A DNA stretch of 64,000 bases from Escherichia coli (GTDB taxonomy: Bacteria; Pseudomonadota; Gammaproteobacteria; Enterobacterales; Enterobacteriaceae), in assembly GCF_041886205.1 (NCBI RefSeq), contig NZ_CP169029.1; one strand, written 5' to 3'. The position numbers and the translations under genes are program-made. The notes under the pieces are model-generated. The model made no database searches and was not told where the DNA came from. It was given only the letters and a program-made list of their open reading frames with translations. This document shows, piece by piece, positions 14,336 through 64,000 of this stretch (position 1 is its first letter; each line of letters begins with the position of its first letter).

Positions 14336-14428
14336 TAAAACAGTGAATGATAACCTCGTTGCTCTTAAGCTCTGGCACAGTTGTTGCTACCACTGAAGCG
14401 CCAGAAGATATCGATTGAGAGGATTTGA

Positions 14429-36946: not shown

Positions 36947-39043
36947 ATGGAAAAGCACGGAGCTGAATTGCTTTTACAGCGGATGTTAGGAAATACCACC
37001 GCTACTTTCAGGAAAGGGCAATGGGAAGCCATAGACGCGGTGGTGAACCAACGGCGAAAACTGCTGGTTGTCCAACGCACTGGCAGGGGGAAAAGTGCCG
37101 TGTACTTCATCGCCAGTAAAATCTTCCGCGATCGCGGTGCTGGCCCGACAATTATCATCTCTCCTTTGCTTGCCCTGATGCGTAACCAGGTTGCCGCCGC
37201 TGAACGGTTAGGTATTACGGCTGAAACGTTGAATTCTACAAACAGGGAAGAATGGCAGCGTATTAGCGATAAGTTGCTGCAAGGTGAGGTCGATTGCTTG
37301 CTGGTTTCCCCGGAACGTTTGGCAAACCAGGACTTTATCGAAACGGTTTTATATCCTATAGCCGATCGTATTGGCTTGCTTGTGGTCGACGAGGCGCACT
37401 GCATCTCTGATTGGGGCCACGATTTTCGCCCGGATTACCGACGTATATTAGATATTTTGCGCCAACTGCCTGCGAATATCCCAGTTCTGGGTACAACCGC
37501 GACAGCGAATAACCGTGTCGTTGAGGATATCCGTCAGCAATTGGGTGACATTGTGATTCAGCGTGGAACGCTGGCTCGCGAAAGTTTGGCGCTTGATGCC
37601 TTAGTCTTAGGTGAACAGTCATCCCGTCTGGCATGGTTAGCAACGGTTATCCCTCAGTTTTCCAAATCGGGAATTGTTTATACCCTGACTACTCGCGATG
37701 CCGAACTTGTCGCCGAGTGGTTAAGGACAAATGGTATCAGTGCATTTGCTTACTACAGCGGCGTGACTTGTGAAGGCGCGGAAGATTCTAATACTGCCAG
37801 GGAATATCTGGAGCAGGCGCTGCTGGCAAATAAAATCAAAGTGCTGGTCGCGACGACGGCATTAGGTATGGGGTTTGATAAACCTGATTTAGGTTTCGTC
37901 ATTCATTATCAAATGCCGGGGTCTATTGTCGGTTACTACCAACAGGTAGGGCGTGCCGGGCGTGCTATAGATTCCGCTGTTGGCATATTGCTTTGTGGTG
38001 GTGAAGACCGCGCTATTCATAAATTCTTCCGTGAAAGCGCCTTTCCTGCGGAGGCGCAAATTCATGAAATACTCAACGTACTTAGCGAGAATGACGGTCT
38101 TACCCTACGAGGCATTGAACAACGGACGAATCTCCGTTATGGGCAAATAGAAAAAGCACTGAAATTATTGGTAGCTGAAAATCCATCGCCTGTGGTGTAT
38201 ACCGAGAAATTATGGCGCAGAACTATCGTCAGTTTCTCTCCTGACCATGAACGAATTAACCATTTGATGAATCAGAGAAAAAATGAGCTGGCAGATGTTG
38301 AAAGCTATATCACGACCAAGGAGTGCAAAATGCAATTTCTGCGCCGCGCACTCGATGAGCCAAGTGCCGAACGTTGTGGTAAATGTAGCAGTTGTCTTCA
38401 GCATCCGTTGCTGTCGCCCGATATTGATAGCGGCTTACTCCATGCGGCAAATTTATTTATTAAACACGCTGACCTGCCATTAAATCTCAATAAACAGGTA
38501 GCATCTGGGGCTTTTACGCAATACGGATTTAAAGGGAACTTGCCTGCGGGTTTACAAGGATCTACGGGGCGAGTCCTTTCTCGTTGGGGAGATTCCGGGT
38601 GGGGAAAGCAGGTAGCACAGGAGAAAAAAACGGGGCGATTCAGTGATGAGCTGGTGGAGGCATGTGCGGAAATGGTTCGCCAACGCTGGAATCCGCATCC
38701 TGAACCAACCTGGGTATGCTGCGTTCCTTCATTAAGGCACCTCGACCTGGTTCCTGATTTTGCCCGGCGACTGGCGGCGAAACTTGGCTTACCTTTTATT
38801 GATGCCATTGAAAAAGTCGTGGACAATCCACCGCAGAATATGCAGCAAAACCGTTTTCACCAGTGTCAAAATCTCGACGGGGCGTTTGTGATTACCCCTC
38901 CTTTGATGCCAGGTCCGGCGTTGCTGGTTGACGATATCGTGGATTCTGCATGGACGCTGACAGTTCTGACAGCACTGTTACGCCAGGCAGGTTGCCCGAC
39001 GGTTTATCCTCTTGCCCTTGCTTCTACCTCGGTAAAAAATTGA
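36947..39043 (+). CDS. RecQ-family DEAH-box helicase with zinc-binding motif and C-terminal phosphoribosyltransferase-like (ComF-like) domain; accessory gene absent from the K-12 gntU-yhgN junction
   Basis: 698 aa ORF with strong SD (aggag, 36936..36940). Motifs: Walker A TGRGKSAVY, RecQ-type motif II VVDEAHCISDWGHDFRPDY, TATA motif, helicase-C QQVGRAGR, Cys cluster C..CGKCSSC, C-terminal PRTase-like LLVDDIVDSAWTL. Confidence 0.88.
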   Translation: MEKHGAELLLQRMLGNTTATFRKGQWEAIDAVVNQRRKLLVVQRTGRGKSAVYFIASKIFRDRGAGPTIIISPLLALMRNQVAAAERLGITAETLNSTNREEWQRISDKLLQGEVDCLLVSPERLANQDFIETVLYPIADRIGLLVVDEAHCISDWGHDFRPDYRRILDILRQLPANIPVLGTTATANNRVVEDIRQQLGDIVIQRGTLARESLALDALVLGEQSSRLAWLATVIPQFSKSGIVYTLTTRDAELVAEWLRTNGISAFAYYSGVTCEGAEDSNTAREYLEQALLANKIKVLVATTALGMGFDKPDLGFVIHYQMPGSIVGYYQQVGRAGRAIDSAVGILLCGGEDRAIHKFFRESAFPAEAQIHEILNVLSENDGLTLRGIEQRTNLRYGQIEKALKLLVAENPSPVVYTEKLWRRTIVSFSPDHERINHLMNQRKNELADVESYITTKECKMQFLRRALDEPSAERCGKCSSCLQHPLLSPDIDSGLLHAANLFIKHADLPLNLNKQVASGAFTQYGFKGNLPAGLQGSTGRVLSRWGDSGWGKQVAQEKKTGRFSDELVEACAEMVRQRWNPHPEPTWVCCVPSLRHLDLVPDFARRLAAKLGLPFIDAIEKVVDNPPQNMQQNRFHQCQNLDGAFVITPPLMPGPALLVDDIVDSAWTLTVLTALLRQAGCPTVYPLALASTSVKN

Positions 39044-40245
39044 TGAATCTTTCAGCCAATGCACAAGCGACTCTCCTGCTAACCAGCGATTTTTCTCGCG
39101 CGGCGGCGAGTGAGCATAAACCTCTTAGTAATAGTGAATGGGGGAAGTTTGCATTATGGCTGAAGCACCAACGTATCAGTCCCGCCGAGCTTCTGGTGCC
39201 GCAACCGCAAGAGAAACTTACAGGCTGGAGCGATCCGCGTATTTCTCAGGAGCGTATTCTTGGCTTGCTGGCGCGCGGTCATAGTCTGGCGTTGGCGGTA
39301 GATAAGTGGCAACGCGCCGGTTTATGGATCATAACCCGAGGAGATGCTGATTATCCCGTTCGCTTGAAAAACCGATTGCGAACGGATGCACCTCCCGTTT
39401 TATTTGGCTGCGGGAATAAAGCATTACTGCAAGCGGAAGGTATGGCGATTGTTGGCTCGCGAGATGCTCCGACTGACGATTTGCGCTATACCCAACAACT
39501 GGCCGCGAAACTGGCCCAACAGGGGATTTGCGTTATCTCTGGTGGTGCGCGAGGTATTGATGAATGTGCAATGGCGTCGGCACTGGAGGCCGGGGGAACT
39601 GCCGTTGGCGTATTAGCTGATAGCTTGTTAAAAACGAGTACGTTAGTGAAATGGCGTGAAGGGCTTATAGCAGGCAACCTGGTGTTGATTTCGCCGTTTT
39701 ACCCAGAGGTGCGTTTCACCGTCGGCAATGCGATGGCGCGAAATAAATATATTTATTGCCTTGCTGAAAGCGCAATGGTTGTACGTGCGGGAATGACCGG
39801 TGGAACGATAACCGGGGCGATAGAGGCATTAAAACATCAGTGGCTGCCTGTGCAGGTTAAACCAAATCAGGATATGCAATCAGCCAATTCACGATTAGTA
39901 GAAAATGGGGCGTCATGGAGTGCTGAACAGGCTGAGAATGTGCCGATCAGACTGTCAGACGTTCCTGGGCTGATGTATGACAGAGCACTCCGTAACGCTC
40001 AACCAGAACTGTTTTCGCTGTATGAAGATGACGCAAATTACGCAGTAATGCCCGCGCATACGCCTGTCGATTTTTATCAACTCTTTGTGGCGGAACTGGC
40101 GATCTTTGCAAAGGAATCGATAAGTATTGAAAGGCTGTCGTCTTGTACTGGTTTAACCATCGAACAAATTAGTGTGTGGCTGAACCGCGCAGAAGAAGAG
40201 GGAAGGGTTATCCGATTGGGCGAAGGTCATTATCAGTTCAGGTAA
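39043..40245 (+). CDS. DprA/Smf-like protein (Rossmann/SLOG-fold core with N-terminal extension and C-terminal winged-helix-like tail); accessory
   Basis: ORF track frame 38950..40245; start taken at MNLSANAQ (39043), whose ATG overlaps the upstream TGA stop (TGATG). Core motifs IVGSRDAP, VISGGARGIDECAMASALEAGG and LISPFYPEVRFTVGNAMARN resemble DprA. Confidence 0.85.
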   Translation: MNLSANAQATLLLTSDFSRAAASEHKPLSNSEWGKFALWLKHQRISPAELLVPQPQEKLTGWSDPRISQERILGLLARGHSLALAVDKWQRAGLWIITRGDADYPVRLKNRLRTDAPPVLFGCGNKALLQAEGMAIVGSRDAPTDDLRYTQQLAAKLAQQGICVISGGARGIDECAMASALEAGGTAVGVLADSLLKTSTLVKWREGLIAGNLVLISPFYPEVRFTVGNAMARNKYIYCLAESAMVVRAGMTGGTITGAIEALKHQWLPVQVKPNQDMQSANSRLVENGASWSAEQAENVPIRLSDVPGLMYDRALRNAQPELFSLYEDDANYAVMPAHTPVDFYQLFVAELAIFAKESISIERLSSCTGLTIEQISVWLNRAEEEGRVIRLGEGHYQFR

Positions 40246-47921: not shown

Positions 47922-49354
47922 TGCAGGTTTTACATGTATGTTCAGAGATGTTCCCGCTGCTTAAAACCGGCGGTCTGGCTGATGTTATTGGGGCATTACC
48001 CGCAGCACAAATCGCAGACGGCGTTGACGCTCGCGTACTGTTGCCTGCATTTCCCGATATTCGCCGTGGCGTGACCGATGCGCAGGTAGTATCCCGTCGT
48101 GATACCTTCGCCGGGCATATCACGCTGTTGTTCGGTCATTACAACGGGGTTGGCATATACCTGATTGACGCGCCGCATCTCTATGATCGTCCGGGAAGCC
48201 CGTATCACGATACCAACTTATTTGCCTATACCGACAACGTATTGCGTTTTGCGCTGCTGGGGTGGGTTGGGGCAGAAATGGCCAGCGGGCTTGACCCATT
48301 CTGGCGTCCTGATGTGGTGCATGCGCACGACTGGCATGCAGGCCTTGCGCCTGCGTATCTGGCGGCGCGCGGGCGTCCGGCGAAGTCGGTGTTTACTGTG
48401 CACAACCTGGCCTATCAAGGCATGTTTTATGCACATCACATGAATGACATCCAATTGCCATGGTCATTCTTTAATATTCATGGGCTGGAATTCAACGGAC
48501 AAATCTCTTTCCTGAAGGCCGGTCTGTACTATGCCGATCACATTACGGCGGTCAGTCCAACCTACGCTCGCGAGATCACCGAACCGCAGTTTGCCTACGG
48601 TATGGAAGGTCTGTTGCAACAGCGTCACCGTGAAGGGCGTCTTTCCGGCGTACTGAACGGCGTGGACGAGAAAATCTGGAGTCCAGAGACGGACTTACTG
48701 TTGGCCTCGCGCTACACCCGCGATACGTTGGAAGATAAAGCGGAAAATAAGCGCCAGTTACAAATCGCAATGGGGCTTAAGGTTGACGATAAAGTGCCGC
48801 TTTTTGCAGTGGTGAGCCGTCTGACCAGCCAGAAAGGTCTCGACCTGGTGCTGGAAGCCTTACCGGGCCTTCTGGAGCAGGGCGGGCAGCTGGCGCTACT
48901 CGGCGCGGGCGATCCGGTGCTGCAGGAAGGTTTCCTTGCGGCGGCAGCGGAATACCCCGGCCAGGTGGGCGTTCAGATTGGCTATCACGAAGCATTTTCG
49001 CATCGCATTATGGGCGGCGCGGACGTCATTCTGGTGCCCAGCCGTTTTGAACCGTGCGGCTTAACGCAACTTTATGGATTGAAGTACGGTACGCTGCCGT
49101 TAGTGCGGCGCACCGGTGGGCTTGCTGATACGGTTTCTGACTGTTCTCTTGAGAACCTTGCAGATGGCGTCGCCAGTGGGTTTGTCTTTGAAGATAGTAA
49201 TGCCTGGTCGCTGTTACGGGCTATTCGACGTGCTTTTGTACTGTGGTCCCGTCCTTCACTGTGGCGGTTTGTGCAACGTCAGGCTATGGCAATGGATTTT
49301 AGCTGGCAGGTCGCGGCGAAGTCGTACCGTGAGCTTTACTATCGCTTGAAATAG
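47921..49354 (+). CDS. glgA: Glycogen synthase GlgA
   Basis: 477 aa ORF beginning [22 protein letters not shown]. Confidence 0.96.
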
Positions 49355-51936: not shown

Positions 51937-53454
51937 ATGGAAAGAATAATGCAAAACAGAAAATGGATTTTGACCTCGCTGGTAATGACTTTTTTCGGCA
52001 TCCCCATACTGACGCAATTTTTGGCAGCGGTTGTTGCTATGCTGGGGGGCGGGCTTGCCGCTATTCTTGAGGTTTGCAATTTACTCTTTACGCCAGCAAT
52101 TTATCTTCTACTCAACGTCTTTATGCTGACTCTGGGGGCGATAATAATATTTTTCTCTGGTCGCGTGTGGGCGGGCGATAGTGCACCAGAAAAAAAAGAA
52201 ATAGCCGTCTGGCGACAATGTCTTTTTTTAGTACCTGCTTTATTCACCCTGGTTGGCTGGATAATCACGCTACATCTGGCAGATTATCAATTTCGCCAGA
52301 TGGGAGACGGTTGGTTGGCAAACCTTATGCTTCCCTGGTTGGGCATTTTTTTAGTCTCATTAGTGGGTGGTGAGTACTGGTGGATAGTCATTATACCCGT
52401 TGGCGCGCATATCAGTTTTTCGCTGGGGTACGGTTGGCCGACCAGACATCTTTTAACGGGCACGTCCGGGTTACGTTGCCGTAATTCCCTCTTGTTTATC
52501 CTTCTCATGCTTGGTTTTGTCGCCGGTTACCAGGCTTATTTATATAAACAGCTTAATCCCGGCGTCGGTGTCCGCGAAAATATTGATACCTGGGCCTGGC
52601 GACCCGATAAACTCAATAATCAACTGACACCATTACGTGGTAAACCGCAAATTCAGTTTACGCAAAACTGGCCGCGACTCGATGGTGCTACGGCGGCGTA
52701 CCCAATTTATGCCTCTGCCTTTTATGCGTTGAGCGTTATACCGGAAGATTTTCACACCAGGGAATATCTGGAGAACTCTCATACCCCCGATGCATATAAC
52801 AGGATTGTTAAAGGTGATGCCGATATTATTTTTGTGGCGCAACCCTCCGGTAGGCAGAAAAAACGCGCTGAGGAATCGGGCGTCACTTTGCTATACACGC
52901 CATTTGCCCGTGAAGCATTCGTTTTCATCGTCAATGCGGATAATCCGGTTAATTCCCTGACTGAACAACAGGTGCGTGACATCTTCAGTGGTGCAATTAC
53001 CAACTGGCGTACTGTTGGCGGTAACGATCAGGAGATCCAGACCTGGCAACGCCCGGAAGACTCTGGCAGCCAGACGGTGATGCAATCACAGGTCATGAAA
53101 AATGTCCGCATGATCTCGCCGCAGGAAACAGAAGTGGCAAGTATGATGGAGGGAATGATTAAAGTCGTTGCCGAATACCATAATACAAAGAACTCAATTG
53201 GCTACACCTTCCGCTATTACGCCACGCAAATGAACGCTGACAAGAATATCAAATTGTTAGCGATTAACGGTATTGCACCCACTGCGGAAAATATCCGTAA
53301 CGGCAAATATCCGTATATCGTCGAGGCATTTATGGTAACGCGGGAAAATATGACCTCAGAAACACAAAAATTGGTGGAGTGGTTTTTAACGCCGCAGGGG
53401 CAGAGCCTGGTGGAAGATGTAGGTTATGTGCCGATGTATAAGACGCTACCTTAA
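51937..53454 (+). CDS. Polytopic membrane domain fused to a C-terminal PstS-like (phosphate-binding-protein fold) periplasmic domain; K-12 has only the yzgL pseudogene here
   Basis: 505 aa ORF; N-terminal ~200 aa hydrophobic, C-terminal region with PBP-like motifs (DGATAAYPIY..., SGSQTV). A TATAAT-like element lies ~25 bp upstream. Start may be M1 (51937) or M5 (51949). Confidence 0.75.
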   Translation: MERIMQNRKWILTSLVMTFFGIPILTQFLAAVVAMLGGGLAAILEVCNLLFTPAIYLLLNVFMLTLGAIIIFFSGRVWAGDSAPEKKEIAVWRQCLFLVPALFTLVGWIITLHLADYQFRQMGDGWLANLMLPWLGIFLVSLVGGEYWWIVIIPVGAHISFSLGYGWPTRHLLTGTSGLRCRNSLLFILLMLGFVAGYQAYLYKQLNPGVGVRENIDTWAWRPDKLNNQLTPLRGKPQIQFTQNWPRLDGATAAYPIYASAFYALSVIPEDFHTREYLENSHTPDAYNRIVKGDADIIFVAQPSGRQKKRAEESGVTLLYTPFAREAFVFIVNADNPVNSLTEQQVRDIFSGAITNWRTVGGNDQEIQTWQRPEDSGSQTVMQSQVMKNVRMISPQETEVASMMEGMIKVVAEYHNTKNSIGYTFRYYATQMNADKNIKLLAINGIAPTAENIRNGKYPYIVEAFMVTRENMTSETQKLVEWFLTPQGQSLVEDVGYVPMYKTLP

Positions 53455-53556
53455 GCAGGATAATCATATGGATACCGGTATTATTCACCTGAACGCGGCG
53501 AATGTTCGTTTTGTTTATCAACCATTTACACGCGACCAGCGGAAGAGGGGGTAATT

Positions 53557-54333
53557 ATGCAACCCAGCCCCGCCATGCAGGCATTAATTGAGCAGATTTA
53601 TTATATTTTTCGTCGTTATCCTGTGCCATCGAGATTTCATGTTTGTTGTCCTTACTGTTTTAGCGAAGAACAACAACAAGCCTTAAGAGGGGTTTCACTG
53701 CGTGCCATACCTTTTCCTTTATTACATGCCTGGGGAACAAGTATTGGCCCTAACCCACAAAATGATGATGAGATTCGCTATTTATTACCCAGATTGTTTG
53801 AATTAATTGCCCAAAGGCAATTTCCAGGCATTTATGAAGGCTGCTGTTTACAGAGAATAGCAGAGGCAGATAACCAGAACTGGCGAAGGGATGAACTACA
53901 AATAATTAGCGATTTCGCCTATTTATATATGCAGGATTGGGTGTCGGCTAAGGAAGTCGTGGAACTGGAAATAATATTAGAAATGTTTTATCGCGGTGGT
54001 ATAAAGATTGAACCCTTACTTGACTCTATTATGTCCATTTCCGGTTACTGGCCGACGGCGTCTATGGCATGTTTGCTCTGGCGTAACAGTAAAGAATACG
54101 TCGAAAATAGCGATTTTGAGCAGAGTGATGATAATAAAACTATTACCACCCAAATCAATACTTGGGCTAGAAACAATCATCCTTTGCTGAAAGAAAGAGC
54201 GCGGCAAGCGATTGAGAACCCACTAAAACAGCCCGAACCAATGACAGAATATCAAGTCTGGGAAGACGACTGGATGATTGATGAGTGTTTATGCGCGATG
54301 TATGACGCATCACCTGAACAATCAGGACAATAA
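53557..54333 (+). CDS. Hypothetical cytoplasmic Cys-containing protein, AT-rich gene
   Basis: 258 aa ORF with strong SD (agaggggg) and no TM segments; codon usage visibly AT-rich compared with flanking glg/glp genes; no family recognised by eye. Confidence 0.65.
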   Translation: MQPSPAMQALIEQIYYIFRRYPVPSRFHVCCPYCFSEEQQQALRGVSLRAIPFPLLHAWGTSIGPNPQNDDEIRYLLPRLFELIAQRQFPGIYEGCCLQRIAEADNQNWRRDELQIISDFAYLYMQDWVSAKEVVELEIILEMFYRGGIKIEPLLDSIMSISGYWPTASMACLLWRNSKEYVENSDFEQSDDNKTITTQINTWARNNHPLLKERARQAIENPLKQPEPMTEYQVWEDDWMIDECLCAMYDASPEQSGQ

Positions 54334-54335
54334 AG

Positions 54336-54935
54336 ATGAAGAAAATCAGACTTTATATTTATCCGCTATATCTCGGCTTTGTTATTGTGCCGTTGTTGGT
54401 ATGGCCGACGGTGGTTGCGCTGGTTGTTGTTGGTATCACACTGAGTTTTCTGATGGAGATGCTGTTCTCAAATTCGTTCATGCACAGGCGTATTTCCCTT
54501 CTGGAATTACAACTTGGGTTATTGGCTGAATATACGCTTTTGTTCTGCGCCATATGTTACGTTGGTTGGCAATTTGCTTCCAGAACTCAATCTGAATTGA
54601 AAAGCAGACTGCATTGTTGGTTGGTATTTGCACCAGTTTATTTCTGGTTGTTCCTGTGGGATATCATTTTCTATGTCGCGCCAGCGAAAATTACATTGCT
54701 GGAAAATATGCGCAGTTTCTTTCTGACCGTTGTCTGGCTCCCACTGAATTTTTCGCCATTTTGGCCTCAGCCGTGGACTGACTTTATCGGTCCGATAAGT
54801 GCACAGCTTGGGTTTGCGTTAGGATATTACTGCCATTGGCGCAGCAAAAATAGAAGCCAGAGGCTGAAGTGGGGGGAGTGGGGAACGTGCCTGAGTTTTG
54901 TTACGTTGGGTATGATGGCGTGGGCTTTACGGTAA
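54336..54935 (+). CDS. Hypothetical small polytopic membrane protein
   Basis: 199 aa ORF starting 3 bp after the previous stop; 4-5 predicted hydrophobic helices; AT-rich. Confidence 0.6.
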   Translation: MKKIRLYIYPLYLGFVIVPLLVWPTVVALVVVGITLSFLMEMLFSNSFMHRRISLLELQLGLLAEYTLLFCAICYVGWQFASRTQSELKSRLHCWLVFAPVYFWLFLWDIIFYVAPAKITLLENMRSFFLTVVWLPLNFSPFWPQPWTDFIGPISAQLGFALGYYCHWRSKNRSQRLKWGEWGTCLSFVTLGMMAWALR

Positions 54936-58041: not shown

Positions 58042-58800
58042 ATGAAACAAACACAACGTCACAACGGTATTATCGAACTGGTTAAACAGCAGGGTTATGT
58101 CAGTACCGAGGAACTGGTGGAGCACTTCTCCGTCAGCCCGCAGACTATTCGCCGCGACCTCAACGAACTGGCAGAGCAAAACCTGATCCTGCGCCATCAT
58201 GGCGGTGCGGCGCTGCCTTCCAGTTCGGTTAACACGCCGTGGCACGATCGTAAAGCCACCCAGACCGAAGAAAAAGAGCGCATCGCCCGCAAAGTGGCGG
58301 AGCAAATCCCCAATGGCTCGACGCTGTTTATCGATATCGGCACCACGCCGGAAGCGGTGGCGCACGCGCTGCTCAATCACAGCAATTTGCGCATTGTGAC
58401 TAACAATCTCAACGTTGCTAACACGTTGATGGTAAAAGAAGATTTTCGCATCATTCTCGCCGGTGGCGAATTACGCAGCCGTGATGGTGGGATCATTGGC
58501 GAAGCAACGCTCGATTTTATCTCCCAGTTCCGCCTCGATTTCGGCATTCTGGGGATCAGCGGCATCGACAGCGACGGCTCGCTGCTGGAGTTCGATTACC
58601 ACGAAGTTCGTACCAAGCGCGCCATTATTGAGAACTCGCGCCACGTTATGCTGGTGGTTGACCATTCAAAATTTGGCCGTAATGCGATGGTCAATATGGG
58701 GAGCATCAGCATGGTTGATGCCGTCTACACCGACGCCCCGCCGCCAGTAAGCGTGATGCAGGTGCTGACGGACCACCATATTCAACTGGAGCTGTGCTGA
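58042..58800 (+). CDS. glpR: Glycerol-3-phosphate regulon repressor GlpR (DeoR family)
   Basis: 252 aa ORF with N-terminal HTH; matches remembered GlpR. Confidence 0.95.
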   Translation: MKQTQRHNGIIELVKQQGYVSTEELVEHFSVSPQTIRRDLNELAEQNLILRHHGGAALPSSSVNTPWHDRKATQTEEKERIARKVAEQIPNGSTLFIDIGTTPEAVAHALLNHSNLRIVTNNLNVANTLMVKEDFRIILAGGELRSRDGGIIGEATLDFISQFRLDFGILGISGIDSDGSLLEFDYHEVRTKRAIIENSRHVMLVVDHSKFGRNAMVNMGSISMVDAVYTDAPPPVSVMQVLTDHHIQLELC

Positions 58801-60380
58801 TCCTGCACGGCTTCCCACGTCAGACCAAAACGCGCCAGGTATTTGCGTAGCCGATCCGCGTCATTGACGCTGGCTTTGCCCTGGCGCGAAACATCAAAAA
58901 GCTGTCGTCCGGCAGCAGAAAGCGACTTTGCCTGGCGGCAGATAGCGATAACGTGTTCCAGTTGCAGCCGATCAAAGAGGTCGATATTTTCCGCTTCAGC
59001 GCCCAACAGCTGTGCAAGCACGGAAGGGCGACTTTCCTGCCAGTTATAGCGCAGACGGTTTATCTCATCTTCCACCACGTCCAGAGTGATGCGTCCGCTA
59101 GTGGCAAAGGTGGCCATCCGCGTGACGCTGGCAGAAAGTTCGCGAAAGTTACCGCGCCATGTTGCCTGGGGAGAGGTCGCGAAGGCCAGCCAGGCACGCC
59201 GCGCTTCGGTGTTAAAACGTACGCTGTCGCCAGTGAGTGAGGCGTGGCGCTCCACTTCATAATCCAGGTTGGGTTCAATATCTTCCTGGCGCTGGCTTAG
59301 ACCCGGCAGGGTGAAGGTCCAGAGATTGATCCGCGCGTACAAGTCTTCGCGAAATTTGCCTTCGGCAACCAGCTGGCGCAAATCGCGCACCGTTCCGGCG
59401 ATAAGCTGAAAATCACTGCTCACCTGGCGATCGCTGCCAAACGGATAAAAGGTTTTTTCTTCAATGGCTTTAAGCAGCATTGCCTGTTCGTCTGTGCCCA
59501 GTTCGCCAATCTCATCAAGAAACAACATTCCGCCGTTGGCGCTGCGTAATAATCCTTCACGAGATTCCCGCGCCCCGGTAAACGCGCCTTTCACATGACC
59601 AAACAGCGTCGACATGGCGGTATCGCCGCGCAGGGTTGCGCAGTTCACTTCCACAAACGCGCCGCTAAACTGATGCCGCGCCTGTTTTAATTCAAATATA
59701 CGTCGCGCCAGAAATGACTTACCTGCACCGGTCGGGCCATTAAGCAGAATTGGCGCGCGGGATTTGATCGCTACTTTTTCAATCTGCTCAATCATGCGGT
59801 TGAAGTGGGGGTTACGCGTGGCAATGCCGGACTTAAGAAAATCAAGCGTTTGCTGGCGTTCCTCGGCAAAGCGGCTGGCGATGGCGTTATAACGGCTTAA
59901 ATCGAGATCGATAATCGTCACTTCACCTGCGCCGCGCGGCTGTTCTTTTTTGCGCGGAGGGGAAGATTGTATCAGCCGGGCGGGCAGGTAACGCGCTTCC
60001 GCCAGCAGAAACCAGCAAATCTGTGCGACGTGGGTGCCAGTGGTGATGTGAATTAAATAATCTTCTTTATCAGGTTGAAACGCGTAGCCACGGGCGAAAT
60101 CATGCAGGCAGGCGTAAACCTCTTCGAAATCCCACGGGTTATGCAGTTCAGTCTCAACGCCTACCACTTCTGTTTCTGGCGAAACGCTGACGATATCGCG
60201 TTTAAGCGTTTCAAACAGCGAGCGCGAGCGGGCGTCATGCAATAATTCCAGTCGATCGATGACCAACGATTCTTGCTGGCATAAACAGAGTGTTGGACGC
60301 CATTTCGACCAGCGCTGACTGCCGCGCCCGGCATAATCCAGTACGGTGCCGACAAAGCCAAAAGCCACTGTTTTACGCAT
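58782..60380 (-). CDS. rtcR: Sigma-54-dependent transcriptional activator RtcR
   Basis: 532 aa ORF with AAA+ sigma-54 activator motifs ([14 protein letters not shown]); 3' end overlaps glpR convergently. Confidence 0.93.
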
Positions 60381-60514
60381 CTTAGATATCCTTATAAAAG
60401 ACGATTTTTCATTATCGGTAAATTGGCTTTGCGGGAAATCTCCGTTTACGGACTGGAAGATTTTATCTATTTAAAAACAATGAATTAAAAAATTAAGCAG
60501 CTTATTTAATTTTC

Positions 60515-60530
60515 TGGCACGACGGTTGCA
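60515..60530 (+). promoter_or_regulatory. Sigma-54 (-24/-12) promoter of rtcBA
   Basis: TGGCAC-N5-TTGCA at 60515..60530, about 37 bp upstream of the rtcB ATG. Confidence 0.8.
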
Positions 60531-60566
60531 ATTATCAGGACATACCAACGAAAAGAGAAAAACAAA

Positions 60567-61793
60567 ATGAATTACGAATTACTGACTACAGAAAATGCCC
60601 CGGTAAAAATGTGGACCAAAGGCGTGCCGGTAGAAGCCGATGCGCGTCAGCAACTTATTAATACGGCGAAGATGCCGTTTATTTTCAAACATATTGCGGT
60701 AATGCCTGATGTACACCTGGGTAAAGGTTCCACCATTGGTAGCGTGATCCCGACCAAAGGGGCGATTATTCCGGCGGCGGTGGGCGTGGATATTGGCTGT
60801 GGAATGAACGCGCTGCGTACCGCGTTAACGGCGGCAGACCTGCCTGAAAATCTGGCGGAGCTGCGTCAGGCGATTGAAACTGCCGTGCCGCACGGGCGTT
60901 CAAATAATCGTAGCCATCGTGATAAAGGCGCATGGGAAAATCCGCCTGTTAATGTCGATGCGAAATGGGCTGAGCTGGAAGCTGGTTATCAGTGGTTAAC
61001 GCAAAAATATCCCCGTTTCCTTAACACTAACAACTATAAACACCTGGGAACGCTGGGAACGGGTAACCACTTTATTGAAATCTGCCTTGATGAGTCGGAC
61101 CAGGTGTGGATTATGCTGCACTCCGGTTCACGCGGAATTGGTAATGCCATCGGGACTTACTTTATCGATCTGGCGCAAAAAGAGATGCAGGAAACGCTTG
61201 AAACATTGCCGTCGCGTGATCTGGCGTACTTTATGGAAGGTACGGAATACTTTGATGATTACCTGAAAGCCGTGGCCTGGGCGCAGCTTTTTGCCAGCCT
61301 TAACCGCGATGCGATGATGGAAAACGTGGTAACGGCGTTGCAGAGCATTACGCAGAAAACGGTAAGACAGCCACAAACGCTGGCGATGGAAGAGATCAAT
61401 TGTCACCACAACTATGTGCAAAAAGAACAGCACTTTGGCGAAGAGATCTATGTGACGCGTAAAGGCGCGGTGTCTGCGCGTGCTGGTCAATATGGAATTA
61501 TTCCAGGGTCGATGGGAGCGAAAAGCTTTATCGTCCGTGGGCTGGGAAATGAAGAGTCGTTCTGTTCGTGCAGCCACGGTGCCGGGCGGGTAATGAGCCG
61601 TACTAAAGCGAAAAAAATGTTCAGCGTGGAAGATCAAATTCGTGCCACCGCGCATGTGGAATGCCGTAAAGATGCCGAAGTGATCGACGAAATCCCGATG
61701 GCGTATAAAGATATTGATGCGGTGATGGCGGCACAAAGCGATCTGGTGGAAGTTATCTACACCCTGCGTCAGGTGGTGTGTGTAAAAGGATAA
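60567..61793 (+). CDS. rtcB: RNA-splicing ligase RtcB
   Basis: 408 aa ORF matching remembered RtcB. Confidence 0.95.
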   Translation: MNYELLTTENAPVKMWTKGVPVEADARQQLINTAKMPFIFKHIAVMPDVHLGKGSTIGSVIPTKGAIIPAAVGVDIGCGMNALRTALTAADLPENLAELRQAIETAVPHGRSNNRSHRDKGAWENPPVNVDAKWAELEAGYQWLTQKYPRFLNTNNYKHLGTLGTGNHFIEICLDESDQVWIMLHSGSRGIGNAIGTYFIDLAQKEMQETLETLPSRDLAYFMEGTEYFDDYLKAVAWAQLFASLNRDAMMENVVTALQSITQKTVRQPQTLAMEEINCHHNYVQKEQHFGEEIYVTRKGAVSARAGQYGIIPGSMGAKSFIVRGLGNEESFCSCSHGAGRVMSRTKAKKMFSVEDQIRATAHVECRKDAEVIDEIPMAYKDIDAVMAAQSDLVEVIYTLRQVVCVKG

Positions 61794-62813
<1,020 letters not shown>

Positions 62814-62855
62814 TGCAGAGATGTAAGCCGGATCTGGCGCGTTATCCGGCTAAAC

Positions 62856-64000
<1,145 letters not shown>

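Follow-up and report, generated by a model that had tools for sequence, protein, structure and literature searches.

The rtcR-rtcB gap in this stretch of E. coli chromosome (64,000 nucleotides, hereafter the window) is almost certainly the native control region of rtcR and rtcBA, with a sigma-54 promoter from which RtcR would drive rtcBA. The promoter motif, its matrix score, identity to K-12, the intact genes and conservation among orthologues come from our analysis; dependence on sigma-54 and RtcR and the existence of an enhancer (UAS) and an IHF site are taken from the literature. On the K-12 core, which the window shares, transcription from PrtcBA is reported to depend on rpoN and on ATP hydrolysis by its activator RtcR, and the CARF domain of RtcR is inhibitory (Genschik 1998, cited in PMC5175333, PMC9650030 and PMC7790460); these citing papers bear out the description of the locus as a known arrangement in an initial sequence-only reading of the window. 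Activating signals include tRNA fragments ending in 2',3'-cyclic phosphate, as shown in Salmonella (PMC7790460), and in E. coli both RtcA and RtcB are required for RtcR activation (PMC9650030).

Beyond a correct annotation, the result adds little: that rtcBA transcription needs RtcR and sigma-54 has been known since 1998, and the promoter remains under study. The Rtc RNA-repair switch of this strain is complete and apparently functional, whereas roughly one sequenced E. coli genome in nine has lost it by deletion, and comparative footprinting yields a concrete candidate for the RtcR enhancer. That candidate and the description of a rare allele are our additions to the known system. The features discussed below are as follows.

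58782-60380, minus strand: rtcR, a 532-aa sigma-54 enhancer-binding activator with a CARF-type RtcR domain, an AAA+ domain and a C-terminal DNA-binding part
60381-60566: rtcR-rtcB intergenic control region, 186 bp
60402-60417: dyad CGATT-TTTCAT-TATCG (consensus CGATA-N6-TATCG), candidate RtcR enhancer (UAS), centred at about -131
60411-60438, minus strand: best sigma-70-like candidate for an rtcR promoter, with -35 TTTCCC (60438-60433), a 16-bp spacer and -10 GATAAT (60416-60411)
60475-60487, plus strand: IHF-like site AAACAATGAATTA, 12 of 13 matches to WATCAANNNNTTR, centred at about -60
60514-60530, plus strand: sigma-54 core CTGGCACGACGGTTGCA, with -24 TGGCAC (60515-60520), spacer GACGG (60521-60525) and -12 TTGCA (60526-60530)
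60541-60566, plus strand: predicted start C60541 (A60540 at -1) and 26-nt leader containing AACGAAAAGAG (60547-60557) with a Shine-Dalgarno-like AAGAG
60567-61793, plus strand: rtcB, 408-aa ligase joining RNA 3'-phosphate or 2',3'-cyclic phosphate to 5'-OH ends
61797-62813, plus strand: rtcA, 338-aa RNA 3'-terminal phosphate cyclase, start taken from RefSeq

The open reading frames, together with the RefSeq annotation of the 100%-identical strain LHM10-1, give the order glpE, glpG, glpR, rtcR (minus strand), the 186-bp gap, rtcB and rtcA (both plus strand) and a convergent malT. Assignment of 60381-60566 to rtcR-rtcBA control by the sequence-only reading agrees exactly with this gap, and the divergence from rtcR that it described for the element upstream of rtcB is plain in the open reading frames. 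We found no annotated feature under the rtcR-rtcB gap in RefSeq genomes. An Rfam scan of 58500-63000 (E-value 1 or better) gave no match, so no Y RNA, riboswitch or small RNA; sigma-70 and terminator scans of 60381-60566 returned nothing; and the sole terminator-like match near the end of rtcA was weak and lay inside malT.

Judged from their translations, RtcR, RtcB and RtcA are all full length and keep their key motifs. RtcR matched the NCBIfam equivalog NF038308 with 845 bits (cutoff 650) over residues 1-527, with PF06956 (RtcR/CARF) at residues 2-185 and PF00158 (Sigma54_activat) at 187-354, and has GAFTGA at residue 265 and a Walker A motif, GPTGAGKS, at 215. RtcB is identical to the K-12 protein at 401 of 408 residues (98.3%), including the catalytic His337; no NCBIfam RtcB model matched at its cutoff, and RtcB was identified by its likeness to the K-12 protein and by the RefSeq annotation of LHM10-1. 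RtcA scored 778 bits against NF003247 (cutoff 333), shares 333 of 338 residues with K-12 (98.5%) and retains the catalytic His308. Because rtcA starts 3 nt past the rtcB stop codon, an operon is indicated.

Both rtcB and rtcR contain hypervariable patches, at 60900-60917 and 59673-59772, respectively, where 100-nt bins differ strongly from K-12 and E. albertii. In the rtcB patch, RtcB residues 112-117 read SNNRSH instead of the K-12 TTGRCK, that is, five changes in six residues.

Sigma-54 promoter core and predicted start

The TGGCAC-N5-TTGCA element named in the sequence-only reading was found at 60515-60530 on the plus strand, in rtcB orientation; the rtcB ATG (60567) follows 36 nt downstream, and the rtcR ATG (60380, minus strand) is 135 nt away. 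As required of a sigma-54 promoter, the GG and GC doublets of its -24 and -12 elements lie exactly 10 bp apart within TGGCAC-N5-TTGC(A/T). The exact motif occurs once in the 64 kb window, and a search tolerating one mismatch gave six matches against 2.0 expected.

Scores were obtained with a log-odds position weight matrix (PWM) built from 40 intergenic sites bound by sigma-54 in E. coli ChIP-seq (Bonocora et al. 2015, PMC4591121), omitting two sites that lie in the window. With 17.09 bits, the rtcB site ranked second in the window, below rpoH P6 (17.82 bits), and in a leave-one-out PWM it took rank 12 among the 42 real sites (range 5.8 to 21.5), placing it in the upper third; the promoter call of the sequence-only reading thus passed the weight-matrix check. 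A score of this height was reached somewhere in 48 of 200 simulated 64 kb sequences (24%) and is alone not significant window-wide; calculated from the same rate, the expectation is about 2e-6 per position and about 4e-4 for the correct strand inside the 186-nt gap. The significance of the site therefore rests on its position, its context and its identity to the confirmed K-12 site. That site, OS35 upstream of rtcB, was bound by sigma-54 in ChIP-seq with a fold-above-threshold score of 17 and is marked 'C', denoting an experimentally confirmed promoter in EcoCyc (PMC4591121). The window 17-mer is identical to OS35, as is a 43-bp stretch around it (60500-60542, -41 to +2) to K-12.

For comparison beyond E. 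coli, we chose orthologues by RtcR protein similarity (73-83% identity), independently of promoter sequence, and aligned nine enterobacterial rtcR-linked intergenic regions. TGGCAC and TTGCA were invariant across these nine Enterobacteriaceae regions, and every enterobacterial and Ralstonia region selected by RtcR similarity carried TGGCAC-N5-TTGCA; the distance to the rtcR start is 133 to 135 nt in the enterobacteria and about 160 nt in Ralstonia.

One alternative is that the motif binds sigma-54 polymerase and is transcriptionally inert, or that it is a chance match, like many intragenic E. coli sites. Many sigma-54 ChIP-seq sites have no known transcript (PMC4591121), 17 bits or more arose by chance in the simulations described above, and the native K-12 PrtcBA is reported to be very weak in vitro (PMC9650030). 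However, the site is intergenic and in sense orientation, its predicted start lies 26 nt before the rtcB ATG, and it adjoins the gene of a dedicated activator. The core is also that of a confirmed promoter and unchanged in orthologues picked independently of the motif, and a 175-nt K-12 fragment gives RtcR-dependent reporter activity (PMC5175333). We consider an inert or chance motif very improbable.

The same low probability applies to a reading in which a sigma-70 promoter in the gap, or read-through, accounts for most rtcBA expression and the sigma-54 element is a secondary contributor. The AT-rich gap does hold weak hexamer matches, the best of which on the rtcB strand agreed at 7 of 12 positions in a relaxed scan, but no sigma-70-like promoter for rtcB at the scan threshold; the divergent orientation of the upstream gene precludes read-through; and the corresponding Salmonella promoter region was picked by its authors for lacking predicted sigma-70 promoters (PMC3844500). 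A sigma-54 promoter activated by RtcR remains the strongly preferred reading.

Two further matches were rejected. A one-mismatch motif inside rtcR (60024-60039, minus strand, TGGCACCCACGTCGCA) scored below 10.9 bits, outside the top 15 of the window, and is absent from the high-stringency K-12 sigma-54 ChIP-seq sites (PMC4591121); we regard it as a chance match. A minus-strand matrix hit at 60527-60543 (12.4 bits) is an artefact of the self-complementary TTGCAA and has no GG at -24.

The spacer of rtc promoters is rich in G and C. Among the four spacer bases before TTGC, two to four are G or C in eight orthologues (three or four in seven of the eight), compared with a mean of 1.3 at the same positions of 41 other E. 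coli sigma-54 sites, none of which has the GG that directly precedes TTGC at rtcB. It is speculation that this spacer causes the weakness of the promoter in vitro.

We placed the transcription start 12 nt past the GC of the -12 element, equivalent to the motif centre +19, following the rule of PMC4591121. The predicted bases at -1, +1 and +2 are A, C and A, which fits the ApC primer and ATP used for native PrtcBA in vitro (PMC9650030). The resulting leader is 26 nt long, compared with 28 nt in K-12, owing to a 2-bp deletion at +3/+4, and contains a motif, AACG(A/G)AAA, that is conserved in the alignment of the nine enterobacterial gaps.

Upstream elements and related rtc loci

Apart from TGGCAC, TTGCA and the leader motif, the conserved blocks of the nine-region alignment are the rtcR ribosome-binding region, a dyad and an IHF-like core. 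The literature describes a UAS at K-12 rtc and, without giving coordinates, an IHF site that separates it from the promoter (PMC5175333, PMC9650030), and the K-12 rtc promoter in multicopy titrates RtcR (PMC5175333, PMC9650030). Published UAS coordinates were not found in the accessible rtc literature. From the sequence comparison, we infer that the dyad at 60402-60417 is the best candidate for the RtcR enhancer: its arms are invariant or nearly so in the nine Enterobacteriaceae regions and its 6-bp centre is variable, related dyads occupy the same place in Chitinimonas (CGATAAATCAGTATCT) and Ralstonia (CGATCTTACAGGATCG), and it lies inside the stretch matching the 175-nt K-12 reporter fragment of PMC5175333. 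The dyad and the rtcR start codon are only about 22 bp apart, and conservation of the dyad could instead reflect the rtcR -10 element or 5' UTR. Only one copy was found at rtc, whereas many such activators use two or more sites. Another palindrome, TCCGTTTACGGA (60443-60454), was discarded as an enhancer candidate, being confined to Escherichia and not conserved in other Enterobacteriaceae.

The candidate rtcR promoter, with 8 of 12 consensus matches, emerged from a relaxed scan, and a stricter scan gave none. Its -10 element overlaps the right arm of the dyad, so RtcR binding there may also autoregulate rtcR. In Salmonella, a sigma-70 rtcR promoter divergent from the sigma-54 promoter has been described (PMC9879122). 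The IHF-like site reaches the exact consensus AATCAA-N4-TT(A/G) in four orthologues, namely both Salmonella, the P0039 locus and Ralstonia.

Taken together, these elements suggest the following sequence of events. Sigma-54 RNA polymerase would sit on 60514-60530 as a closed complex that does not start unaided, and RtcR, made from the divergent gene, would be kept inactive by its N-terminal CARF domain. RNA damage signals would release RtcR from this inhibition; the active protein would oligomerise on the upstream enhancer and be brought to the polymerase by an IHF-induced bend at about -60. ATP hydrolysis, acting through the GAFTGA loop of RtcR, would then open the promoter, and transcription would run from about C60541 through rtcB and rtcA.

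A comparable architecture is found at E. coli pspF-pspABCDE, where the activator gene is divergent from the sigma-54 operon and an IHF site lies between enhancer and promoter. The pspF enhancer sites are close to or over the sigma-70 promoter of the activator gene, resulting in autoregulation. PspF differs in having no sensory domain, in being controlled by PspA and in its enhancer sequence. The likeness is one of architecture only, with autoregulation a possibility for rtcR.

The closest known system, K-12 PrtcBA, has the same gene order (glpR-rtcR and rtcB-rtcA-malT), the same 17-mer, the same predicted A/C start, the same IHF-like site and Rtc proteins about 98% identical to those of the window. 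It differs in the length of the gap (188 bp vs 186 bp in the window, with 14 differences) and of the leader. Salmonella Typhimurium Prsr, which drives rsr-yrlBA-rtcBA in an RtcR-dependent manner, likewise has a divergent rtcR, and its core, TGGCACGCTGGTTGCAAT, differs from that of the window in two spacer bases only. The IHF consensus stands at the same position, the leader motif is AACGGAAAT and the dyad is one base off (CGAGA-N6-TATCG). This Salmonella core was enriched 15-fold in ChIP-chip, the operon was induced 71-fold by a constitutive activator, and the site scored 21.2 in the matrix of that study (PMC3844500). Unlike the window, the Salmonella operon begins with rsr (Ro60), after which, ahead of rtcB, come the Y RNAs YrlA and YrlB, both of which were found by Rfam in one Salmonella locus (L137). 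By open reading frames and the Rfam scan of 58500-63000, the window has neither rsr nor Y RNAs between promoter and rtcB, and rtcB follows the promoter directly. Some Salmonella enterica (L133) have this E. coli-type layout with rtcB first.

At greater distance, the nearest non-enterobacterial RtcR relatives are betaproteobacterial, in Chitinimonas, Chitinolyticbacter, Chitiniphilus, Ralstonia and Caballeronia (70-73% identity). Chitinimonas and Ralstonia also have a similar IHF-like site, dyad and leader motif, which hints at horizontal transfer of the whole rtc regulatory module. A scan of reference genomes for TGGCACGNNGGTTGCAAT favours loci with that pattern; it served as a lead only and was replaced by the RtcR-anchored orthologues. 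Among the matches listed, the motif stood divergent beside RtcR homologues in E. albertii, Chitinimonas and four Riflebacteria metagenome-assembled genomes, and an extended core, TGGCACG-NN-GGTTGCAAT, was common, again among the matches listed, to these distant phyla.

At distant rtcR loci, in the four Riflebacteria genomes and in Chitinolyticbacter, a tRNA-like element lies downstream of the divergent sigma-54 promoter, within about 100 nt. The elements gave Rfam tRNA matches of 42-58 bits and are probably the tRNA-like domains of Y RNAs.

Rare intergenic allele and loss of the locus

The intergenic allele of the window is rare: at an identity of at least 99% it occurs in 9 of 5426 complete E. 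coli genomes, and it is 92.6% identical to the K-12 sequence. Over 60373-60570 we counted 4 differences from E. albertii against 14 from K-12, although most of the flanking rtcR and rtcB sequence resembles K-12 more, a pattern that suggests a short mosaic or recombination patch. Relative to K-12, the allele has the 2-bp deletion at +3/+4, a cluster of changes at 60453-60470 and an A-to-T change in the left arm of the dyad, which is specific to this allele; there is no difference in the -24/-12 core.

Promoter strength could therefore differ from that of K-12, and we weighed the possibility that the core is intact and this E. albertii-like allele has been retuned in RtcR binding, bending or early transcription, with an altered basal level or inducibility. 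The clustered changes and the deletion would be candidate causes, as would the one substitution in an otherwise near-invariant dyad arm (CGATT for CGATA), and the rarity of the allele and its closeness to E. albertii amid K-12-like flanks point the same way. On the other hand, the -24 and -12 elements, the IHF-like core, 9 of 10 dyad arm bases and the leader motif are all kept, and E. albertii, with its nearly identical region, has intact rtcR and rtcB. We judge retuning rather unlikely, and it would in any case be compatible with an RtcR-activated sigma-54 promoter for rtcBA.

A broader combined interpretation takes the single dyad as the enhancer, from which RtcR would activate rtcBA at about -131 and repress rtcR; the GC-rich spacer may hold the promoter tightly off, and the window allele would be a natural variant with altered tuning. 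We advance this tentatively, as a possibility that is somewhat doubtful as a whole. No earlier description of a dyad enhancer with autoregulation, or of the GC-rich rtc spacer, was found in the accessible literature.

Within the species, 4850 of 5426 genomes (89%) carry the rtc control region, and about 579 of 5425 match only 46% of the glpR-malT segment. Strain CD306 is one such example: here a deletion with one end in rtcR and the other in rtcA has taken out the promoter together with rtcB. As about 11% of complete E. coli genomes have no rtc promoter through an rtcR-to-rtcA deletion, the word 'intact', which the sequence-only reading applied to the promoter, is a meaningful one.

Damage of other kinds was also observed. 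In strain 720632, IS1 has inserted into the gap and separates the upstream elements from the -24/-12 core, and rtcA is frameshifted; in strain 142, rtcB is a pseudogene with an internal stop; and other damaged E. coli loci, ESBLEC_MG32 among the examples, show a truncated rtcR or a TGGTAC variant of the -24 element.

PsyrTA cassette and other sigma-54 sites in the window

The helicase/DprA cassette mentioned in the sequence-only reading (36947-39043 and 38950-40245) was identified by PADLOC as PsyrT (1057 bits) and PsyrA (660 bits), with the Pfam domains DEAD/Helicase_C and DNA_processg_A. PsyrTA, a toxin-antitoxin and anti-phage defence module of a RecQ-like helicase and a DprA-like protein, is inserted between gntU and yhgN; 1650 of 5426 complete E. 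coli genomes (30%) carry it. The distance to the rtc promoter, put at about 20 kb in that reading, is 20.1 kb, and 14 genes of other function lie between: yhgN, asd, glgBXCAP, a three-gene accessory cluster, glpD and glpEGR. Given these unrelated intervening genes and the differing occurrence (30% vs 89% for rtc), we rejected a functional link between the two loci; their proximity looks coincidental, as the sequence-only reading had supposed, and PsyrTA is unrelated to rtc.

The three-gene accessory cluster (51946-54935, between glgP and glpD) encodes a 502-aa PstS-family/PBP_like_2 protein and two hypothetical proteins of 258 and 199 aa, neither of which matched Pfam or PADLOC. A sigma-54-like site of 14.8 bits (TTGGCAAACCTTATGCT, 52315-52331) lies inside its first gene.

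Two other sites in the window correspond to K-12 sigma-54 ChIP-seq sites. The top matrix hit (14372-14388, plus strand, CTGGCACAGTTGTTGCT, 17.8 bits) is the sigma-54 promoter P6 upstream of rpoH (OS36 in K-12). The other, 48417-48433 (plus strand, AAGGCATGTTTTATGCA) inside glgA, is identical to the intragenic site IS43, with a fold-above-threshold score of 49, and is listed for Salmonella glgA as well.
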